Shown in pieces: positions 396 to 56,688 of a stretch of 64,000 nt of DNA. The position numbers and the translations under genes are program-made. Position 1 is the stretch's first letter. Every line of letters starts with the position of its first letter. The notes beneath the pieces are model-generated. The model had not been told where the DNA came from. It made no database searches and worked only from the letters and a program-made list of their open reading frames with translations. Origin of the DNA: an uncultured Candidatus Bathyarchaeia archaeon (lineage in GTDB: Archaea; Thermoproteota; Bathyarchaeia; Bathyarchaeales; Bathyarchaeaceae). The DNA is taken from contig CAZKWF010000001.1 of assembly GCA_964556565.1 (NCBI GenBank), positions 33,035 through 97,034 of the forward strand, read 5' to 3'.

Positions 396-1682
396 ATGCT
401 TAGTCGTTACGTGTCTAAGACACCCAAATCTCAGCAACTGTATCAAAAAGCTGAGAGAGTTCTTCCCGCTGGAGTCTCATATTTCCTCCGACACATAGAG
501 CCTTATCCCTTCTACACAGCGAAAGCAAAGGGAAGCAAACTGACCGATGTAGATGGAAACGAATACATCGATTTCTGGCTCGGCCACACCGCCCTCATCT
601 TGGGACACAGCCCACCAGAAGTCATGAAAGAAGTTAGAAGACAAATTGATAATGGAACCCATTACGGAACAGCGCACGAACTCGAAATCGCCTTAGCCGA
701 ACAGATAGTGAAGATGGTTCCAAGCGCTGAAATGGTTCGCTTCACGAACTCCGGAACCGAAGCAAACATGTACGCCACACGACTAGCCCGCACATACACT
801 AACAGAGACAAAATCGCAAAGTTTGAAGGCGGATGGCACGGAGGCTACGACGCTCTCGATATAGCTATCAAACCTCCGCTGGATGTTCCCGAATCCGGTG
901 GATTAACACCTGGAACCTTGAAGGATACAATTGCACTTCCATTCAACAACATTGAAGAAGCAAGAAGAGTGATAAAAAATGAGAGACTTGCTGCGATTAC
1001 CATGGAACCTGTGCAGGGAGCTGGAGGCTGCATCCCAGCCGAAAGAGAATTTCTACAAGAGCTGAGAGAATTGTGCACCGAAAATGGGACACTTCTAATT
1101 TTCGATGAAGTCATAACCGGATTCAGACTAGCACCTGGAGGAGCACAACAACACTACGGAGTCCTACCAGACATCACGGTGATGGGAAAAATCCTGGGAG
1201 GAGGATTCCCAGTCGGCGCCTTCGCAAGCCGCAAAGAAATCATGGACCGCATGAACCCTATTCTCCATGAACGACCAAAATTCTCCTTTCATGGAGGAAC
1301 ATTCTGCGCAAACCCCATCACTATGACCGCGGGCTTAGCAACACTAAAACTGCTCCAAGATGGACAACTGTTGAATAAACTGAACAAGCGTGGAAACAAC
1401 CTTCGACAAAAACTTTCCAACATCTTTGAGAAAAACCGCGTTGATGTTCAAGTTACGGGTGAGGGATCGCTTTTACACACACACTTCACACGCGAAAATG
1501 TGAAAGACGTTCGTGACGTTTTTCGAGCAGACCGAGGAAAACTGTTAGACTATCATATGCACTTGATTATGAACGGAGTCTTTTTCCTTCCAACGCGCAC
1601 AGGTGCATTGAGCACTGCACACTCAGAAAGCGACATAGAAAAGCTTTTGACAGAGGCAGAAATCTTCGCAAAGAAAGACTAG
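396..1682 (+). CDS. Class-III PLP aminotransferase, glutamate-1-semialdehyde 2,1-aminomutase (HemL)-like
   Basis: 428-aa ORF. Motifs DVDGNEYIDF, FTNSGTEANM and FDEVITGFR, plus the PLP-lysine context MGKILGGGFP, are typical of the GSA-aminomutase family. Confidence 0.85.
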   Translation: MLSRYVSKTPKSQQLYQKAERVLPAGVSYFLRHIEPYPFYTAKAKGSKLTDVDGNEYIDFWLGHTALILGHSPPEVMKEVRRQIDNGTHYGTAHELEIALAEQIVKMVPSAEMVRFTNSGTEANMYATRLARTYTNRDKIAKFEGGWHGGYDALDIAIKPPLDVPESGGLTPGTLKDTIALPFNNIEEARRVIKNERLAAITMEPVQGAGGCIPAEREFLQELRELCTENGTLLIFDEVITGFRLAPGGAQQHYGVLPDITVMGKILGGGFPVGAFASRKEIMDRMNPILHERPKFSFHGGTFCANPITMTAGLATLKLLQDGQLLNKLNKRGNNLRQKLSNIFEKNRVDVQVTGEGSLLHTHFTRENVKDVRDVFRADRGKLLDYHMHLIMNGVFFLPTRTGALSTAHSESDIEKLLTEAEIFAKKD

Positions 1683-1815
1683 TCACCAAGCCCTTATGTC
1701 AGAAATATCGCGTACACATTCAGTTACTCTTGCTTGTCAATTCCCTGTGTCGCTCAAATACTATGCAGTAGAGACGATTTCGCAAAGATTTCACAACATG
1801 TGGTCGAAAACTACG

Positions 1816-2475
1816 CTAAGACATTTTGGTATCCACTTTAAACCCGTATTCTGCTTTTCTCAAGTCTTCCAAAGTGTTAATGTTGAAAAAGGTTAGTAGT
1901 TTTGGGTCAAATTGTCGAAGAACTAGAGTAGAAACGTATCGTATGTCCTTCATGTGGGCTATCATAGATCGCAAGTCAAGTTTTTTCTCTTTCAAGGCAG
2001 CTTTTGTTACAATCAGAGCTGATTTTGTATGGTAAACAGCTTGAAGCGGTTCGATATATCCGTTAGGCCATCTAGGAATAACTGCACTTTTGTTGATACA
2101 CAAGTCCAAGAGTAGCGACGCTATCTGGCTTGAGACAAACGGCGTGTCGCACGGAAGAAGAAGTGAATATTTGCCTTTAGCATTCCCAAAGCCAGTTGAT
2201 GCGCCAATAAGAGGGCTTTGCGTTCTACTTTCATCGACTACTATTTTTGCTTTGCCTTGCAACAAGCATTCAATTGGGTTTATTTGGCCTTCTGAGCTGA
2301 CAACAACTACGGTTTCATCAACCACTCCAGAAATCGTATCAAGTACGTGGAGAACGAGGGGTTTACCCGCTAATTTAACCAGCCCTTTGTCCTGGCCAAA
2401 TCGCTTGGAGAAACCACCCGCAAGAATTACTGCCGATCTTTTCAGAAGCATCAGCCTCATTTCATTTGTAACCAT
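1816..2475 (-). CDS. mobA: Molybdenum cofactor guanylyltransferase (MobA-like NTP transferase)
   Basis: 219 aa. N-terminal AVILAGGFSKRFG nucleotide-binding loop and LLLPCDTPF motif. Confidence 0.8.
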   Translation of the reverse strand: MVTNEMRLMLLKRSAVILAGGFSKRFGQDKGLVKLAGKPLVLHVLDTISGVVDETVVVVSSEGQINPIECLLQGKAKIVVDESRTQSPLIGASTGFGNAKGKYSLLLPCDTPFVSSQIASLLLDLCINKSAVIPRWPNGYIEPLQAVYHTKSALIVTKAALKEKKLDLRSMIAHMKDIRYVSTLVLRQFDPKLLTFFNINTLEDLRKAEYGFKVDTKMS

Positions 2476-2566
2476 TCGTTCTCTTTCGCCAAGTCTCCCT
2501 TCTGCTCAATTTTTTTTGGTAAAAACACCTATCGCAAAACTTGATCTTTTGCATAACCGATTTCCT

Positions 2567-3463
2567 CTATACTTTCAATTCGGAGAGAACGTACTGGATT
2601 ATCTCGTCTGCAATGTTAATTGTAGTAACCGATTGTAATCCTCTCCATCCTGGTTGACTGTTCAGTTCAACTATCAGGGGTCCTTCGGGTCCTTCTAAGA
2701 TGTCGACGCCAGCCACTCTACAACCGATCACTTTCGCTGATTTCACCGCAAGATTCTCCATCTCTTTATCCAACTTCAACGCCACCGGCTTCGCGCCCAA
2801 GCTTACATTTGTTTTCCAGTTGTCAGCTATCCGTCTCATAGAGGCTACGACATGAACACCTAAAACCAACGCTCGAATATCGGAATTTCCATGAGGGATA
2901 AACTCTTGTATGTACAGAACACCGTGAAGGAAAGAAACTGCCCTGAACACTCTTGCAGCAACCTCTGGATCCGAAACTCTTGTGGAGCCAACTCCCCTTG
3001 ATCCAAACAAAGGCTTTACCACAACATCTTCTCCCAACTCGTAGAAGACCTTCAAAGCCTCATCAGGATTTTCTGTCACTGCTGTGCGCGGGACAGGCAA
3101 TCCGTGCTCCTCCAAAAGAGCCAGTGCACAGTATTTGTCTACTGAACGTTCAATGGACAACGGGGGATTAATGATCAGCATTCCTAGGCGTTCAAGGCGA
3201 TGCAGAAGGTCCATCCTGAAGATGATTTCCTCAAGAGAACCGCGTCCGATAGGGCGTATGATTAACGCGCGTAAATCTCTAAGGATGTCTGTCTTCTCTA
3301 CCGATGCTTTAGCCTTATGTTTGATGCGAGCAACGATTTTGGGAAAGCTGAAACACATAGGCGTGACGTTTCGCCTTTCCATTGCTCTTCGCAGTTGAGT
3401 GATGTCCCATCCATTCTCGTTTATCGTGACGATTCCCATCTCCAAAGCAGCATCCCTCATCAT
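2567..3463 (-). CDS. RimK-type ATP-grasp alpha-L-glutamate ligase (RimK/MptN/CofF family)
   Basis: 298 aa. ATP-grasp signatures VVVKPLFGSRGVG, YIQEFIP and AGVDILE...VELNSQPGW. Confidence 0.75.
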   Translation of the reverse strand: MMRDAALEMGIVTINENGWDITQLRRAMERRNVTPMCFSFPKIVARIKHKAKASVEKTDILRDLRALIIRPIGRGSLEEIIFRMDLLHRLERLGMLIINPPLSIERSVDKYCALALLEEHGLPVPRTAVTENPDEALKVFYELGEDVVVKPLFGSRGVGSTRVSDPEVAARVFRAVSFLHGVLYIQEFIPHGNSDIRALVLGVHVVASMRRIADNWKTNVSLGAKPVALKLDKEMENLAVKSAKVIGCRVAGVDILEGPEGPLIVELNSQPGWRGLQSVTTINIADEIIQYVLSELKV

Positions 3464-3527
3464 TAGCCTTTACTTGGATTAAGGAATAAAGGTTAGCGCC
3501 GCCAAACGCTTTTTTACCTGTGAGAAC

Positions 3528-4478
3528 CTAAAACCTATGAATATATTGTGCGAGTTGTTTGGCGTTTTCTATTTTCTCGGAGAGATTTAGATGCAGGTAC
3601 GCTCCAAACTCGTTGTAGTATGGTGGACCCCTCCTTGAAAACAACGTTAAAATCTTTCCATCATGATTTATCTTGAAACCTTCTCCAGTTGGTTCGTGCC
3701 CCCGAATTAACACTTTGGCATTCAACATTTTTAGAAGCTTCTTTGTGATATCTTCACCAAAAAGCCTTCCAGCTCCTCTAGGCGAGGGATAAATCCCCCT
3801 CACACCCTCTCTAGGATCACTCCAAAGTATCTCCTCCAGATGGGTTTCGCGCGGATGCTTCTCATGAGCGAAGGCTAAATCCTCTATTGTAGAAGCTTGG
3901 CTTGGCACTCCGCCGTGAAGCAAAACGTACCTTTCATTTACAAGCACTCCACTGTACAAATAGTTGAAAAGTCCACGTATCCTTGTATAGACCTGTGATG
4001 CAGCGTCGCCGAACTTCCTCTGCAGGTGAGCTGGCAAATCGTGTGGATGGGCGAGGAGGTCGTCGGGTCCTTCGTGATTGCCTCTCATAAGAACAACATG
4101 CTTTGGAAACAGTTCTTTGAGCTTTAAGATAACGTAGTAGACCTCGGGCGAGTGGAGTCCTCGGTCTCCGTAGTCTCCAAGGAAGATCATAGTGACATCT
4201 TCATCTTTACGGCTTTTCTTCATGAAATCGCCGCCTTTCAAGGCAATCAGGAGGCTTTCCAAGTCTCCATGGATGTCTCCAACGACGATTGCTTCACCTA
4301 CTGGCGGTGTTGAAACGAACCTGCCTGTAACTTGCCTGCTTCCTATTTGCCCGTTCTCTTTGGCCAATAGCTGCGTGACTTTTTCAACTAGCTGAAGAAA
4401 TTCGTTGCTATCTACTTTCTTAGCCATGTCGATCAAGTCAGAAGGTTCTTTAATGTTGACGACCACATTCATCACCAT
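3528..4478 (-). CDS. PPP-family Ser/Thr protein phosphatase (metallophosphoesterase)
   Basis: 316 aa. Contains the GDIHGD, GDYGDRG, RGNHE and LHGG motifs. Confidence 0.8.
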   Translation of the reverse strand: MVMNVVVNIKEPSDLIDMAKKVDSNEFLQLVEKVTQLLAKENGQIGSRQVTGRFVSTPPVGEAIVVGDIHGDLESLLIALKGGDFMKKSRKDEDVTMIFLGDYGDRGLHSPEVYYVILKLKELFPKHVVLMRGNHEGPDDLLAHPHDLPAHLQRKFGDAASQVYTRIRGLFNYLYSGVLVNERYVLLHGGVPSQASTIEDLAFAHEKHPRETHLEEILWSDPREGVRGIYPSPRGAGRLFGEDITKKLLKMLNAKVLIRGHEPTGEGFKINHDGKILTLFSRRGPPYYNEFGAYLHLNLSEKIENAKQLAQYIHRF

Positions 4479-4620
4479 TCGTCCAAATAAGTACTATAGA
4501 TGATTAAGCTTCTTCAAATATTGTTTCCAAGTCTCGGTTCTTGCCTGACCATTTTTTTGATGTTTTCACTTGGCGATTCATCTGTGGGTGTTAAAAAAGG
4601 GGCACCACTAGATGTTACTT

Positions 4621-4971
4621 CTAGTATGGAATGAAGCAGAGGAACTTTAGAGTTTTGTCTCCTATGTTTCTGAAGGAATGTGGGATGTTTGGTGGGATGA
4701 AGATTGCGTAGCCTGGGACGACGCATTTTTATTGGTCTCCGCATTCAACTAAGCATTGTCCATCTAGAATGAAGACTTCGTGTTCCCAACTGTGTGAGTG
4801 ATGTGCTGAGTGTCCTTCTGGCTTGACTTCGAAGTAGCGCATAGCGAAGTTTTTTGCGCCGTCATCTTTCGTTATCAACCATCTGACTTGGATGTCTTTG
4901 TATGCGGGGTCTTCCACTTTTGCTGCTTCTATTTCGCTGAAGTGAACAGCCTTAAATCCCAAATGTTTCAC
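4621..4971 (-). pseudogene. Cupin-domain protein interrupted by one in-frame TAA (4729-4731)
   Basis: The track ORF ends ...HSHSWEHEVFILDGQCLVECGDQ*. The same frame continues KCVVPGYAIFIPPNIPHSFRNIGDKTLKFLCFIPY to TAG at 4621-4623, which is the second cupin motif. GTG start at 4969-4971. Confidence 0.7.
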
Positions 4972-5054
4972 CTTCTCTTGTTTTGATTGCGATCTAACGA
5001 TTATATAAAACTAGTCTTGTGTAAGCGTGTTTTTGTCATGTTGTTTGCTTGTTT

Positions 5055-5097
5055 CTCTCTCTTTCTAAGCCTCCTATAACCCCCTATAATTTATTTT
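5055..5097 (-). promoter_or_regulatory. Conserved promoter/leader module copy (CT-tract, C-run, TATA-like box), facing the cupin gene
   Basis: Sequence ctctctctttctaagcctcctataaccccctataatttatttt. It lies 83 nt from the GTG at 4971 and belongs to the family with copies at 7876, 20243, 23499, 36173, 36229 and 56481. Confidence 0.55.
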
Positions 5098-7875: not shown

Positions 7876-7915
7876 GCAACCACCCCCCTAGGTAGGGGGG
7901 TCTAGAAAGAGAAAG
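7876..7915 (+). promoter_or_regulatory. Promoter/leader module copy, palindromic subtype (CCCCCCTAGGTAGGGGGG + TCTAGAAAGAGAAAG)
   Basis: Matches the reverse complement of 23499-23540 at 43 of 44 positions. It ends 101 nt before ATG 8017. Confidence 0.55.
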
Positions 7916-8016
7916 ATTAACGTAAATAACAGAACAGAATAGTTAACTTTTCAGAGAAAGGCTTATAACATAGCAACGTTTTCTTGTGGCAATCTTCCAG
8001 AAAGGAGAATTACGCT

Positions 8017-19667: not shown

Positions 19668-20130
19668 AACATCACAATTTTCATTATAGCGTTCACTCTT
19701 TGAAAGTCTTGTGCATCATTCGAATATCTTAGGAAATAGTTCATCAAGAAGTTCAATTGAACTTGTGCAGGAAGTAACTACCTTAGGGGCAGAAATTGAA
19801 TATGTATAGTTACTCACACGCTTACCATTCATAACAAGCATGAGTTATGGGATCCTAAAATGGGAACAAGCACATCAAGCAGATGGACTTCTATCATTGC
19901 TGGACTGGTCATAAATTGCCATCTAATATTTCTCTAGCAAGCTGTGATAGAGCTTGCTCCCTATATTTCTCTCATTCTGGCTTACTGAATGCCAAATCCT
20001 CCCATTCAAAACCGTTTAGGTGGTGGCGGGCAATTTGTTCTTGAGTTCGGTGGAGGAACTCGCAGTTAAGGACTACACGCGTTTACAACATCACATGAAA
20101 ACCGCATCGTCTAATACAGACGCCGTCGAT

Positions 20131-20180
20131 TCCCATCTTTTCGTATCTTTTCCTATCTTTTGCTATCTATTCCTATCGTG
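20131..20180 (+). promoter_or_regulatory. Five 10-bp-periodic repeats (TATCTTTTCC-like) upstream of the psmB/aCPSF1 promoter module
   Basis: tcccatcttt/tcgtatcttt/tcctatcttt/tgctatctat/tcctatcgtg. Homologous to the reverse complement of 36314-36360. Confidence 0.6.
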
Positions 20181-20242
20181 ATATAAACCGTTTTCAAGCT
20201 TAGCTTCAAAAAACCAATCAGAAACAAGCTTTGTGAAAAACT

Positions 20243-20276
20243 AAAAAAATATAGGGGGGGTCTATAAGAGAGAGAC
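20243..20276 (+). promoter_or_regulatory. Promoter/leader module copy (AAAAAAATATA, G7, TCTATAAGAGAGAGAC)
   Basis: Same architecture as the copies at 5055, 36173, 36229 and 56481. Followed by a G-poor leader, GCAAACAACCAAGCAAAAAACACACACAG... Confidence 0.6.
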
Positions 20277-20466
20277 TAGTGCAAACAACCAAGCAAAAAA
20301 CACACACAGAAAACACATCTATTCTCAACAAGTCAGCTTCTCACAAACCACCACAAAAACAAGAAAAATAACGTAAAGTTTTTATGCAAACACACCATGA
20401 ATACATCTCTCTCACTTCTCCCGAGAAAATCTCTTGGGGAAATAGATTATCTAGGAGGAACAACAA

Positions 20467-21111
20467 ACGCATCAAAACCCAGATCACCCAACACTAAAAG
20501 GAACAACAACAATAGGAGTAATCTGCAAAGACGGAGTCATCCTAGCCTCAGACACCCGCGTAACAATGGGATACTTCGTAGCCCACAAAAAAGGAAAAAA
20601 AGTATACAAAATCGACAACCACCTAGCAATGACCATCTCAGGAAGCGTCGCCGATGCACAACGAACAGTAGACATCCTCAAAGCAAACGCACAACTATAC
20701 AAACTAAACACCAAACGCCCAATACCAGTAAACTCAGCAGCCAGACTCATCGCAAACCTTCTGTTCTCAGCCCGCCTAGCCCCACTGATAGCTCAAGTTC
20801 TCGTCGGAGGCATCGATGACACAGGACCACACATATTTTCGTTAGATCCCTTCGGCAGCCTCACCGAAGAAAAATGCGTCGCCACCGGTTCAGGCTCGCC
20901 CATAGCCTACGGAGTACTGGAAGACAAATACAAAGAAAATATGATAATCAAGGATCTCCTATCTGTAGTCGTGCGCGCCGTTGACTCAGCTATGAAAAGA
21001 GACGCTGCAAGTGGAGATAACTTTGACGTAGCAATCATAGACAAGAAAGGATTTCACGAATTAAACGATGAAGAAAAAGGAAACATTCTAGGAGGCTCTG
21101 AGGAGCGATAA
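20467..21111 (+). CDS. psmB: Proteasome subunit beta; 5' end unresolved
   Basis: The frame encodes ...HPTLKG/TTTIGVICKDGVILASDTRVT, with the catalytic Thr1 codon at 20503-20505, upstream of the track ATG (20566). No ATG, GTG or TTG lies between the TAG at 20452 and Thr1. AGGAGG (20453-20458) sits 8 nt before ACG 20467. Confidence 0.8.
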   Translation, partial: THQNPDHPTLKGTTTIGVICKDGVILASDTRVTMGYFVAHKKGKKVYKIDNHLAMTISGSVADAQRTVDILKANAQLYKLNTKRPIPVNSAARLIANLLFSARLAPLIAQVLVGGIDDTGPHIFSLDPFGSLTEEKCVATGSGSPIAYGVLEDKYKENMIIKDLLSVVVRAVDSAMKRDAASGDNFDVAIIDKKGFHELNDEEKGNILGGSEER

Positions 21112-21117
21112 AACAGC

Positions 21118-23034
21118 GTGACAGCACTCGACAAAACAAAAGTAGAAATCAGTCAATCAATACTAGAACGTGTTCCTAAAGAGGCAGAAATCACACGAAT
21201 AGAATTCGAAGGTCCAGCTCTAGCCGTTTATACAAAAAAGCCAGAAGTTCTCATCGAGCAAAGTTACGTAATCGCAGACATCGTCAACCTGATCAGAAAA
21301 CGAATCGTTGTACGTTCTGACCCCTCGGTAAGACTGCCTGAGAAGGACACAGAAAAAATCATACAGAAAGTAGTTCCTCCAGAAGCACAAATTTCAGGAA
21401 TGAGTTTTGATCCCAGCCTAGGCGAGGTTATCATCGAAGCCGAAAAACCCGGCTTGGTCATTGGAAAAAACGGGGTTATCCTACAAGAGATCATAAAACA
21501 GTCACGATGGAGGCCCCGCGTTCTAAGGAGCCCTCCAATACCATCTAAAATCATGGCCCACATGCGACATTATCTCCACACTGAAAGCAAGGAACGAGAA
21601 AGAATACTCCGTACAGTGGGCGAAAGGATTTTCAGACCAACAGTTTACGGAGTCGGAGACATCCGAATCTCTGCGTTAGGTGGCTTTCAACAGGTGGGAA
21701 GGTCTGCCATCCTTGTACAAACAAGAGAAAGTCAAGTCCTACTGGATTGTGGCATAAACCCGGGCTCCTCGAATTCGCTCTTAATTTTCCCAAGACTCGA
21801 TGCACCTCAGTTTGATTTAGACACGTTAGACGCTGTTGTAATAAGTCATTCACATCTAGATCACTGCGGCTTCCTTCCATTTCTTTTTAAATATGGGTAT
21901 GATGGTCCGGTTTATTGTTCAGCCCCCACGTCAAATCTGATGACTTTGCTTCAATTAGATTATCTTGACGTAGCGAGTAAACAAGGGGTGATGCCGCCAT
22001 ACGATCAAAGAGATGTGCGGTCAACCGTGTTACACACCATCCCCCTGCGATACGGCGCCGTGACTGACATAGCCCCAGATGTTCGTTTAACCCTTCATAA
22101 CGCTGGACACATTTTGGGTTCATCGATCGTTCATTTGCATGTTGGAGAAGGTTTGCATAACATCGTCTACACTGGCGATTATAAATACGGGAAAACGATG
22201 CTTCTTGAACCTGCGGTCGCAGAGTTTCCCAGAGTAGAGACCATAATAACTGAAAGCACGTATGGAGCTCCGCAAGATGTAATGCCATCTAGAGTTGAAG
22301 TTGAAGAAAAACTTACGGCGGTCATAAATGGCACTTTAGATAGGAGAGGCAAAGTTTTAATCCCAGTTCCAGCTGTCGGCAGAGCTCAGGAGATTATGCT
22401 GGTCATTGATGGGTATATGCGCCGAGGACTGATGAGGGAAACGCCCGTGTTTATTGAGGGTATGATTTCTGAGGCTACTGCTATTCACACAGCTTATCCA
22501 GAGTATTTAGAAAGGGAAGTGCGAAACAGCATTTTGCATGAGGGAGTTAATCCGTTTCAATCGGATTATTTCACGATTGTGGAGCACCCCAGTGCCCGAG
22601 AAGAAATTGTGGATGGAGATCAATGTATTATCATAGCAACTTCTGGCATGCTTGAGGGTGGGCCGGTGATAGATTACTTTAAGCGTTTGGCATCAGATGA
22701 ACGCAATACGATAATTTTTGTGAGTTATCAAATTGAGGGGACACGAGGGAGTAGGGTGCAAAAGGGTTTGGCAGAAACGCCTATAATAAATAGTGAGGGA
22801 AAAATTGAAGTTATAAAATCGAATATGAAGGCTGAAACTATTAATGGGTTTTCTGGGCATTCTGATAGGAGGCAGATTATTAATTATATTCGCCGAGTTA
22901 TGCCGAAACCTGAGAGAATAATTGTGTGTCATGGTGAGAGCGCAAAATGTTTGGGTTTAGCGAACTTTTTGCGGAGAAGGTATAATGTTGAAACGTTAGT
23001 GCCAGAGGTTTTGGAGACTGTTAAGCTGCGGTAG
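21118..23034 (+). CDS. aCPSF1/FttA-type beta-CASP ribonuclease (2x KH + metallo-beta-lactamase + beta-CASP)
   Basis: 638 aa with a GTG start. N-terminal KH repeats, HSHLDHCG motif and a beta-CASP C-terminal region. Confidence 0.9.
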   Translation: MTALDKTKVEISQSILERVPKEAEITRIEFEGPALAVYTKKPEVLIEQSYVIADIVNLIRKRIVVRSDPSVRLPEKDTEKIIQKVVPPEAQISGMSFDPSLGEVIIEAEKPGLVIGKNGVILQEIIKQSRWRPRVLRSPPIPSKIMAHMRHYLHTESKERERILRTVGERIFRPTVYGVGDIRISALGGFQQVGRSAILVQTRESQVLLDCGINPGSSNSLLIFPRLDAPQFDLDTLDAVVISHSHLDHCGFLPFLFKYGYDGPVYCSAPTSNLMTLLQLDYLDVASKQGVMPPYDQRDVRSTVLHTIPLRYGAVTDIAPDVRLTLHNAGHILGSSIVHLHVGEGLHNIVYTGDYKYGKTMLLEPAVAEFPRVETIITESTYGAPQDVMPSRVEVEEKLTAVINGTLDRRGKVLIPVPAVGRAQEIMLVIDGYMRRGLMRETPVFIEGMISEATAIHTAYPEYLEREVRNSILHEGVNPFQSDYFTIVEHPSAREEIVDGDQCIIIATSGMLEGGPVIDYFKRLASDERNTIIFVSYQIEGTRGSRVQKGLAETPIINSEGKIEVIKSNMKAETINGFSGHSDRRQIINYIRRVMPKPERIIVCHGESAKCLGLANFLRRRYNVETLVPEVLETVKLR

Positions 23035-23401: not shown

Positions 23402-23498
23402 GTCTATCTCCTCATGTAGTTTGGTTGTGGCTTGAAGTTTAAATTTTTCCTTTTTTTGGTGCTTAAATATGTGCGTGTGTTTGTTTCGTTATTTGCAT

Positions 23499-23540
23499 AT
23501 CTCTCTCTTTCTAGACCCCCCTACCTAGGGGGGTGGTTGC
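23499..23540 (-). promoter_or_regulatory. Promoter/leader module copy, palindromic subtype
   Basis: atctctctctttctagacccccctacctaggggggtggttgc. The CT-tract lies 99 nt from the sepF start. Confidence 0.55.
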
Positions 23541-36075: not shown

Positions 36076-36172
36076 ATTATTGTTCGTCCTAAAAAGTTGT
36101 TTCTGCTTGATTCTTCTTGTTTATGGGTGTTCTGTTTTGTATTTGTGTTTGGGTTTTTCACATTCTTTTATT

Positions 36173-36210
36173 CTCTCTCTTTTATAGACCCCCCTATAGC
36201 CCCCCCTAAT
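36173..36210 (-). promoter_or_regulatory. Promoter/leader module copy (proximal of a tandem pair)
   Basis: ctctctcttttatagacccccctatagccccccctaat. The CT-tract lies 97 nt from the mutase ATG (36075). Confidence 0.6.
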
Positions 36211-36228
36211 TCTTTGTAGCTCCTTATG

Positions 36229-36260
36229 TCTCTCTCTAGACCCCCTACCTAATTTTTTTT
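36229..36260 (-). promoter_or_regulatory. Promoter/leader module copy (distal of the tandem pair)
   Basis: tctctctctagaccccctacctaatttttttt. Confidence 0.5.
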
Positions 36261-56384: not shown

Positions 56385-56480
56385 TTATTGTTCCTCTGTC
56401 CTGTGTACTTTTGTGTTGGTCGGGGTTCTTTTAAGTGTTTTTCTTTTTGTCCTTGATGTGTTTGTCCTGTTGTTTGCGCG

Positions 56481-56510
56481 TATCTCTCTTTAGGCCCCCT
56501 ATAATTTTTT
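56481..56510 (-). promoter_or_regulatory. Promoter/leader module copy
   Basis: tatctctctttaggccccctataatttttt. The CT-tract lies 99 nt from the eS30 ATG. Followed directly by ATGCAT. Confidence 0.6.
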
Positions 56511-56688
56511 ATGCATACATAAAGCGGTTAACATAGATCGTTTACATTTAAACATTATAGAGTGTAAAGAACGTGTAAAACTCCAAAAATCGGGGACTGA
56601 TGGGCTCCGCTTATATACATTTCAGAAATCAGTTTTTAGAAAAAAGAGAGGGGGAATGTTTTTCTCAGCAGATTCTTCTAAGGGCTAC

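Follow-up and report, generated by a model that had tools for sequence, protein, structure and literature searches.

We analysed a 64,000-nucleotide (nt) window of DNA from a Candidatus Bathyarchaeia archaeon (GCA_964556565.1, contig CAZKWF010000001.1, positions 33,035-97,034 of the forward strand), in which a short intergenic module built around a G-run and a GA tract recurs in seven copies. These copies belong to a large clade-specific family of intergenic repeats dispersed through the genomes of one Candidatus Bathyarchaeota group. That membership, the anatomy of the repeat, the dynamics of its copy number, its genomic contexts and its base composition were read directly from the copies. 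From these features we give an even chance to the view that the repeat is a recombinationally mobile, portable and strong core-promoter cassette, which would have been spread and reshuffled among intergenic regions.

A clade-specific family of intergenic repeats

All seven copies listed by an earlier, sequence-only reading of the window were present, with the coordinates and strands it had given (Table 1). The string described there, running in gene orientation from an A-rich box ending in TTATA or TATA through G5-7, (T/C)CTA(G/T/A)A and a GA tract into A/C-rich sequence, was recovered as the sequence shared by the seven sites. A degenerate core pattern matched the window five times against 0.21 matches expected, a count reached in 0 of 100 shuffles. 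When 55 units from related contigs were made into an nhmmer profile that left the window out, its search returned exactly the seven sites (E = 4e-10 to 3e-4) and nothing further at E <= 10.

Across 596 Gb of species-representative genomes, the exact core pattern (GGGGGGTCTAKA-N0-2-AGAGAGAG) occurred only in three Candidatus Bathyarchaeota metagenome-assembled genomes (MAGs), with 10 of the 12 exact-core loci falling in one MAG. It was also found on 111 metagenome contigs and on no viral contig; about 10 metagenome matches were unrelated GA microsatellites and were set aside. The window itself is not among the matching contigs (labelled here in the form L001), several of which are orthologous to it at 90-94% identity. 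Rfam scans of the window and 32 loci gave no family matching the module, the only matches of the Rfam and tRNA scans being an RNase P RNA and a tRNA-Leu divergent from the module and a 23S rRNA gene downstream of it. Our literature searches found no description of this repeat element.

Architecture of the unit and its long form

The conserved unit, observed in roughly 125 clusters, is ~55-60 nt long and consists of a left box, G5-7, TCTA(K)A(A)(A), (GA)4 and a right end that opens with a pyrimidine-purine run, its consensus after the GA tract being cACACG-CAAATAACGTAAC-AAA. Single units are the most frequent (82 clusters), followed by double (48) and triple units (9). The left box is of two kinds, either A5-8-TTATA or a C-run with a loop of 4-7 nt that pairs with the G-run as a hairpin. 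The A-rich TATA-like box that the sequence-only reading had made part of the module throughout is found in copies A, C, F, G and, in weak form, E, and is absent from the hairpin copies B and D, where the G-run forms the 3' arm of the hairpin CCCCCC-TAGGTA-GGGGGG (-15.6 kcal/mol). The units fall into two discrete subfamilies. Length compensation between the TCTA..GA box and the next spacer, considered as a sign of fixed geometry between the TATA box and the transcription start site (TSS), was not found; the two subfamilies appeared instead.

About 40 loci carry a long form of ~330 bp. From left to right it comprises a left flank (CTGACAnnAGCCACGA), a C6-TAGGTA-G4 hairpin, a conserved block of ~80 nt, 3-8 phased ATCTTTTCCn repeats, an A-rich block with two AAGCTT sites, and the core. 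Copy C, previously taken for a plain promoter module, does contain the core and is in fact the right end of such a long form from which the left hairpin is missing. Its four ATCTTTTCCn repeats (window 20134-20173, +) compare with 3-8 in relatives and place T4 tracts one helical turn apart. The hairpin type corresponds to the left hairpin of the long form joined directly to the core, as if the sequence between two TA-Gn sites had been deleted. Genes for RNase P RNA and tRNA-Leu(GAG) lie divergently 400-500 nt upstream of long-form copies, and this tRNA-Leu(GAG) has a canonical TATA of its own.

Several further identities were considered for parts of the repeat. A G-quadruplex as a common feature was ruled out because single units have one G-run only. 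CTGA/ATGATA motifs were examined as those of a C/D-box small RNA, for which a proper C box is missing, and origin recognition box (ORB) or origin elements were rejected, the copies being dispersed. A structured RNA in the upstream part of the long form was likewise discarded at -6 kcal/mol, with a covariation term of only -0.66 kcal/mol.

Unit turnover and exchange between copies

Orthologous loci of psmB, sepF, mutase and eS30 all carry a module and differ in the number and type of units. The sepF locus has 1, 2, 2, 3 and at least 2 units in five related strains, the last units decaying in two of them; window copy D is one unit where orthologous loci hold 2-3, while the right-end block at sepF is orthologously kept with few substitutions. 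At psmB the left half is of the long form in the window, L033 and L071, a tandem pair in L010 and of the hairpin type in L103, and at eS30 the sequence upstream of the G-run is wholly different between the window and L095. Copies also share sequence across unrelated loci. Copies B and D are identical at 41 of 42 positions and about 88% identical over 60 nt (hand count), and the upstream 232 nt of copy C are 77% identical to the non-orthologous L001. Judging by these alignments, copies evidently exchange parts through recombination and through tandem gain and loss.

Copy G is adjoined on its upstream side by a second repeated block, the X-module (CCCCGATTTTTGGAGTTTTACACGTT...ATGCATGCAT), which is 83-88% identical to sequence in L080, L032 and L029 and adjoins other parts of the module there. 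Since the X-module is common to three unrelated contigs, these intergenic regions are mosaics of repeats.

No terminal inverted repeats were present in an alignment of 18 long-form copies, in which the sole inverted repeat is the left-end C-run/G-run hairpin. No target-site duplication was evident at the orthologous psmB, sepF, mutase and eS30 loci, all of which are occupied. A linked transposase was not noticed in 691 kb of loci, in which no dedicated test for an autonomous element was made. The module looks to have spread by recombination or tandem duplication rather than by transposition.

Two loci show larger rearrangements. In L016 an insertion of ~4.1 kb (410-4505), the one mobile element seen in these loci, unrelated to the repeat and ending in a tyrosine-recombinase-like C-terminus, lies inside the mutase leader and parts the module from the mutase gene, with a 19-bp direct repeat (GCAGAAACAACTTTTTAGG) on its flanks. 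In L025 a module is fused to a short 5' fragment of POR alpha (839-960), with the ATG 41 nt after the GA tract, and an intact module with POR alpha lies 1.86 kb downstream of this fragment copy (2696-2820), an arrangement suggesting that cassette and gene start were duplicated as one piece.

Genes beside the repeat

At all six window loci a co-oriented gene starts ~83-108 nt downstream of the module. The distances from GA tract to start codon that had been proposed proved accurate for the cupin (83 nt; GTG 4971), GNAT (101 nt; ATG 8017), sepF (98-99 nt; TTG 23401), methylmalonyl-CoA mutase (97 nt; ATG 36075) and eS30 genes (98-99 nt; ATG 56384). The psmB start proposed at ATG 20397, 122 nt away, has to be moved, as orthologues start at the ATG corresponding to window position 20384, ~108 nt from the GA tract. 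Pfam searches confirmed the GNAT, proteasome, SepF, methylmalonyl-CoA mutase and eS30 assignments.

Throughout the family the distance from GA tract to start codon ranges from 41 to >300 nt, with a mode near 95-110. Neighbouring genes were validated by Pfam or Rfam because longest-open-reading-frame calling overcalled convergent genes and a codon model undercalled them; the validated set holds 13 convergent and about 21 co-oriented neighbours. Among the latter is a 23S rRNA gene located 290 nt downstream of the module in L026, where two units are followed by a proximal TATA. Other co-oriented downstream genes encode Alba, uL22, eL38, L7Ae (then S28e), eS30, SepF, POR alpha, AOR, fumarase, an Lsm_C protein, PsmB-FttA, the mutase, a metallo-beta-lactamase-fold (MBL) protein, HAD, a beta-helix secreted protein, a B12-radical-SAM enzyme, an AAA/chelatase-like protein and an NTP-transferase. 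A link to highly expressed genes, for which the sequence-only reading had proposed a test, is supported by the relatives, in which the co-oriented downstream genes are typical of high expression and include 23S rRNA. Units of the translation apparatus account for 5 of ~27 co-oriented loci, with P ranging from about 7e-4 (at an assumed share of 2.5%) to 0.012 (at 5%). The module may define a regulon.

A candidate core promoter

Module-free genes in the same genomes have a canonical AAAnn-TTTAAA/TTTATA, the start of the hexamer peaking 45 nt before the start codon and Shine-Dalgarno G-enrichment following 29-38 nt past the hexamer start. The module sequence AAAAA-TTATAG differs from this lineage consensus at one position. 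Directly after the GA tract, 27-33 nt past the start of TTATA, lies the pyrimidine-purine run cACACGCA, within which position 29-30 falls. A second possible TATA, TCTATAAA, carries G where the B recognition element (BRE) calls for A and would place the start at ACGTAAC; under either choice of TATA the predicted TSS is within the conserved right-end block. RNase P RNA was tried as a calibrator of the spacing between TATA and TSS and proved ambiguous. The length of the unit (~55-60 nt) matches the cover of a pre-initiation complex, from the BRE to about +15. The claim that the module is a promoter therefore keeps its core, in that the A-run and TTATA fit the BRE/TATA consensus of the lineage and an initiator-like run is present, and loses the notion of a fixed promoter with a 100-nt leader.

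From these features we infer promoter activity, the position of the TSS and a function for the hairpin as follows. The core would be a self-contained, rightward-firing core promoter, with the A-run serving as BRE and TTATA as TATA box. The G5-7/TCTA(K)A/(GA)4 block would occupy about -23 to -1 and is presumably read by TFB or by a dedicated factor, or excludes chromatin. Transcription would start in the pyrimidine-purine run within about 0-6 nt 3' of the GA tract; a start ~16 nt further, at ACGTAAC, which requires TCTATAAA to be the TATA box, is less likely. The RNA would then carry the conserved CAAATAACGTAAC at its 5' end, and the transcript would continue through a non-folding, locus-specific A/C-rich tract to the Shine-Dalgarno sequence and the start codon. 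Units would be gained and lost by tandem duplication, unequal recombination and exchange between copies. The hairpin-type copies would be fusions of the left-end C-run of the long form to the G-run and, lying mostly behind a co-oriented gene, may mark the 3' end of that gene too. Such a cassette is the most economical reading, and all six window loci place the module where a promoter would be expected. It would explain the extent of the unit, its tandem repetition, the set of highly expressed genes, the loci at which the module stands alone, and the unstructured tract.

Whether the module or a second element drives the downstream gene differs between loci. No canonical proximal TATA was found by position weight matrix (PWM) for psmB or the mutase in the window, and eL38, HAD and MBL loci have none either; the module is thus the sole promoter candidate at these loci. 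The supposed leaders of sepF, eS30, cupin and GNAT each contain a canonical TATA, 42-54 nt ahead of the start codon (PWM derived from canonical sites: 12.3, 8.7, 6.3 and 6.3 bits, respectively), so that a second TSS with a short leader is likely for these four genes. Over the family, a TATA hexamer was present at -60 to -36 in 14 of 40 co-oriented loci, a few genes being represented more than once. Some genes probably have two promoters and others the module alone, to go by these boxes.

The boxes inside the leader are among several observations that weigh against a promoter cassette. Five strains share the proximal TATA of sepF (AAAAAAGGAAAAATTTAAACT) almost unchanged, the sole substitution being in L033, while the module upstream of it varies. 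The A-run/TTATA box is missing from the hairpin-type copies B and D, and the conserved G-run/GA block between TATA and TSS is unmatched in canonical promoters of the same genomes. At thirteen distinct Pfam-validated loci the module faces the 3' terminus of a convergent gene, and the units there look like those in front of rRNA and ribosomal protein genes. Co-orientation was seen at about 27 of 40 loci (binomial P = 0.04) and, counting validated neighbours, at only 21 of 34 (P = 0.23). The convergent third is unexplained by a promoter cassette unless these copies are antisense promoters or tolerated insertions. Finally, the forward strand is G-poor upstream of the module as well, so that composition alone is no mark of a TSS.

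Part of this evidence would suit an upstream activating or architectural element, in which the G-run/TCTA(K)A/GA block binds a regulator or shapes the DNA and so boosts a canonical promoter ~45-60 nt downstream, with a contribution from the phased T-tracts and with leaders of ordinary short length. A canonical TATA follows the GA tract by 45-61 nt at sepF, eS30, GNAT, POR alpha and L7Ae and by 85 nt at the 23S rRNA gene, the box of sepF scoring 12.3 bits and being almost unchanged in five strains; the conserved block has no equivalent in ordinary promoters, and the 10-nt phased T-tracts of the long form are typical of bent DNA. However, psmB, mutase, eL38, HAD, MBL and the POR fragment (41 nt to its ATG) have no proximal TATA that could be activated, the spacing from module to proximal TATA is variable (33-85 nt or more), the A/C-rich, structure-free tract starts at the module and not at the proximal TATA, and at convergent copies there is no promoter to activate. 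We consider an activating element unlikely, but a substantial rival to the promoter cassette.

The A/C-rich tract and the predicted leader RNA

On the module strand, the ~80 nt from the GA tract onwards contain 0.5 A, 0.25 C, 0.1 G and 0.14 T, with A+C at 0.7-0.78. The conserved leader of ~100 nt postulated for all copies survives in its first ~20-25 nt after the GA tract, and the remaining ~75 nt are non-homologous between loci, which have in common there only a composition of about 0.5 A, 0.25 C and 0.1 G. Predicted minimum free energies (MFE) of five of the six window leaders are -0.9 to -2.8 kcal/mol, the GNAT leader reaching -12.9. Leaders of the family average -5.9 +/- 4.7 kcal/mol, compared with -15.4 +/- 5.3 kcal/mol for controls, the 100-nt stretches ahead of genes that have no module (P = 1e-33). 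At the 23S rRNA gene of L026, A/C-rich sequence fills the whole 290 nt from module to gene and flanks an internal TTTATAT left and right; this speaks for a transcription start at the module, as a promoter cassette would have it.

The sequence-only reading had also offered a translational-control leader. For this, or for a structured leader, we found no support, and there is neither an Rfam match nor conserved secondary structure. RNA-level control in a wider sense, with the leader controlling translation or binding a protein and so marking out a post-transcriptional regulon, could draw on the first ~20 nt of the predicted RNA (CAAAUAACGUAAC), conserved in >100 copies, on the unusually unstructured leaders and on Shine-Dalgarno motifs ahead of the starts. 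We regard it as highly improbable, given that leaders are non-homologous past ~25 nt, that a third of the copies have no downstream open reading frame (ORF), and that family and fold are both missing.

Convergent copies and gene 3' ends

The sequence-only reading tied the module to gene starts, and it had named random placement of further copies beforehand as an observation that would refute it. In the relatives we found that outcome, in the 13 convergent loci; the module is dispersed, tandemly variable and mosaic, is not bound to gene starts, and has about a third of its copies convergent. Convergent stop codons lie 13-92 nt after the GA tract and belong to genes for PyrI, UDP-GlcNAc 2-epimerase, Sm, uL30, Elp3, AglB, ThrRS, archaemetzincin, an RNA methyltransferase, a PhoU-domain protein, DUF1616, DUF4152 and DUF2096. 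The stop codon of Elp3 is located within the right-end palindrome GTAACGTGTTAC (L012 1402-1415, also in L076 and L106), so that the repeat overlaps the end of a coding sequence there. By inspection, hairpin-type and A-run units do not segregate by convergent or co-oriented context. With respect to the gene on their left, hairpin-type left ends lie behind a co-oriented gene in 32 cases versus 11, and A-run types in 15 versus 19 (Fisher P = 0.01).

These placements recall a selfish or structural intergenic repeat of the REP, MITE or Correia-like kind, which would act chiefly, if at all, on the 3' ends of genes. The hairpin would stabilize or end upstream transcripts, the A-rich flank would provide oligo-T terminators for convergent genes, and the resemblance to a promoter would be incidental. 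Besides the convergent stop codons, the preference of hairpin-type ends for a position behind a co-oriented gene and the Elp3 overlap, this explanation is favoured by the derivatives of the ~330-bp long form by internal deletion, by the exchange of parts between copies, and by L015, where the element fills nearly the entire 135-nt convergent spacer and its reverse strand (CGTTTTTGTTTTG) reads as oligo-T terminators. Nonetheless, terminal inverted repeats, target-site duplications, empty sites and a linked transposase were not seen, most units have no hairpin, and the forward strand lacks a T-run after the hairpin. A structural repeat also leaves unexplained the enrichment of rRNA, ribosomal protein and Alba genes downstream of co-oriented copies and the loci where the module is the only promoter candidate. 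We hold it to be an unlikely account of the family as a whole, though again a substantial rival, and find a role at transcript 3' ends plausible for the convergent and hairpin-type copies, given the stable hairpin and the L015 spacer.

Several of these functions may be joined in one system, which we think distinctly improbable as a whole. Under such a joint reading, a self-propagating cassette would be recognized by a dedicated factor, for example a TFB/TBP paralogue reading the G-run/GA block. It would control a growth regulon of rRNA, ribosomal proteins, Alba, proteasome, SepF, an S-layer-like protein and POR/AOR. Its transcripts would share the 5' tag CAAAUAACGUAAC and a non-pairing A/C leader as a functional analogue of eukaryotic 5'-terminal oligopyrimidine (5'-TOP) mRNAs. 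The cassette would further separate transcription units from one another, with the hairpin acting on upstream transcripts, the opposite-strand oligo-T on convergent ones, and antisense RNAs arising at convergent loci.

Features of the window and neighbouring genes

Coordinates of the copies and associated features are given in Table 1.

Table 1. Repeat copies, their parts and associated features (window positions unless a contig label is given)
Feature	Position	Strand	Parts	Context and support
Copy A	5027-5097	-	A-rich/TTATA box, G5, second TTATA-GGAGG, CTTAGAAAGAGAGAGA (5054-5097); right-end block AACAAGCAAACAACATGAC (5027-5053)	Upstream of cupin; profile E 9.8e-8
Proximal box, cupin	5001-5010	-	TTTTATATAA	Canonical-looking, inside leader
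Copy B, hairpin type	7883-7935	+	CCCCCCTAGGTAGGGGGG (7883-7900) overlapping core GGGGGGTCTAGAAAGAGAAAGA (7895-7916); right end TTAACGTAAATAAC (7917-7935)	Upstream of GNAT; profile E 8.4e-9
Proximal box, GNAT	7961-7969	+	GCTTATAAC	Inside leader
Copy C, long form without left hairpin	20057-20303	+	Conserved internal block 20057-20133; 10-nt phased ATCTTTTCCn repeats 20134-20173; A-rich block with two AAGCTT sites (20196, 20226); TATA-like box and core CTAAAAAAATATAGGGGGGGTCTATAAGAGAGAGA (20241-20275); right end 20276-20303	Upstream of psmB; profile E 7.8e-9
Copy D, hairpin type	23477-23533	-	Hairpin 23516-23533; core 23500-23521; right end TATGCAAATAACGAAACAAACAC (23477-23499)	Upstream of sepF; profile E 3.9e-10
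Proximal box, sepF	23437-23448	-	AAAAATTTAAAC	PWM 12.3 bits
Copy E, downstream unit of tandem pair	36145-36211	-	AATTAGGGGGGGCTATAGGGGGGTCTATAAAAGAGAGAGA (36172-36211); initial leader (36145-36171)	Upstream of mutase; profile E 8.7e-8
A/C-rich, almost structure-free tract	36076-36171	-		Copy E to mutase ATG; 97 nt, MFE -2.5 kcal/mol
Copy F, upstream short unit of tandem pair	36229-36260	-	AAAAAAAATTAGGTAGGGGGTCTAGAGAGAGA	Profile E 3.4e-4
Copy G	56458-56510	-	AAAAAATTATAGGGGGCCTAAAGAGAGA (56483-56510); right end TACGCGCAAACAACAGGAC (56458-56482)	Upstream of eS30; profile E 7.1e-6
Proximal box, eS30	56428-56435	-	CTTAAAAG	PWM 8.7 bits
X-module, second repeated block	56511-56596	-		Adjoins copy G upstream; shared with three unrelated contigs
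RNase P RNA / tRNA-Leu(GAG) sites	L002 3526-3828; L036 2712-2798; L105 892-978	+; -; +		Rfam/tRNA scans

Two of the genes behind window copies are irregular. The cupin ORF (4729-4971, -) encodes 80 amino acids with half a Cupin_2 domain, below the Pfam cut-off, and is possibly truncated. The window psmB (20384-21111, +) appears disrupted, its N-terminus being no longer intact: compared with orthologues it differs in length by 1 nt near 20432-20450 and reads TAG in place of their CAG, and the longest ORF runs from 20566, without the propeptide/Thr1 region (Pfam match from profile position 27). This disruption is either a pseudogene or an assembly error. The gene for the transcription termination factor FttA/aCPSF1 (KH_TffA, beta-CASP; 21118-23034, +) begins only 6 nt after psmB and would therefore be co-transcribed from copy C. 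An exact-protein look-up of the window SepF and eS30, aimed at transcript-derived contigs, returned no record.

Relation to known repeats and promoters

Promoter-bearing intergenic repeats are already known from a halovirus and from bacteria, and the element described here is undescribed in the literature we found. The class I intergenic repeats of halovirus HF2 are 58 bp long and were all shown to be promoters, long counter-transcripts being observed as well (Russ, Pfeiffer, Dyall-Smith 2021, PMC8707807). Both these repeats and the module are archaeal, ~58 bp in length and intergenic, carry A/T-rich promoter motifs and hold positions conserved among relatives. The HF2 repeats reside in a viral genome and were experimentally tested, whereas the module is chromosomal, matched no viral contig and is known from sequence alone. 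Tandem arrays, the G-run/GA block and the hairpin variant further set the module apart.

Among bacterial repeats, Correia, ERIC and REPIN elements and putative mobile promoters (PMPs) bear promoters (Nijveen, Matus-Garcia, van Passel 2012, PMC3575422). PMPs are defined by at least 80% identity over at least 50 nt, at -150 to -50 of unrelated coding sequences (PMC3575422). Copies B and D reach this identity, and copy C compared with L001 (77%, 232 nt) falls slightly under it. Like PMPs, the module places near-identical upstream sequence before non-homologous genes, although PMPs are bacterial and carry sigma-70 promoters while the module is archaeal. With repeats of the Correia/ERIC/REPIN type it shares a small size, an intergenic location in either orientation and the potential to supply promoters, terminators or hairpins. 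In contrast, the terminal inverted repeats and target duplications that mark Correia elements and MITEs were not found for the module. Enterobacterial REP/BIME elements resemble it as G+C-rich intergenic hairpins, often located behind a gene and mosaic with other motifs; however, the hairpin of the module is confined to the C-run subset, and its invariant core (G-run, TCTAKA, GA tract) is non-palindromic.

Compared with the canonical archaeal arrangement of BRE, TATA and initiator, the module has a similar A-rich BRE-like run, TTATA and a pyrimidine-purine step ~29-30 nt further on. It differs in the G5-7/TCTA(K)A/(GA)4 block between TATA and TSS, in a conserved initial transcribed sequence and in the copies where a C-run replaces BRE and TATA. 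Haloarchaeal rRNA operons are preceded by near-identical promoter units in tandem. The L026 locus, with its two units and proximal TATA in front of the 23S gene, is similar in having tandem units before a highly expressed RNA gene, whereas units of the module are distributed over dozens of unrelated loci, including gene 3' ends.

Implications for Bathyarchaeota

Bathyarchaeota are abundant archaea of sediments that have barely been cultivated, and we know of no experimental work on their promoters. Should the repeat not be a promoter, it would still be the first REP-like mosaic repeat family described for the phylum, and a caution against inferring regulons from a single window. If it is an active promoter, it would be a clear archaeal chromosomal case of the spread of promoters through repeat dynamics, in which the number of units, varying from strain to strain, could tune expression. 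Promoter and mRNA design would then gain two new features in need of explanation, namely the A/C-only leaders and the invariant G-run/GA block between TATA and TSS. An active cassette would also provide a sequence marker of highly expressed genes in MAGs and a ready-made strong promoter and leader for genetic tools.

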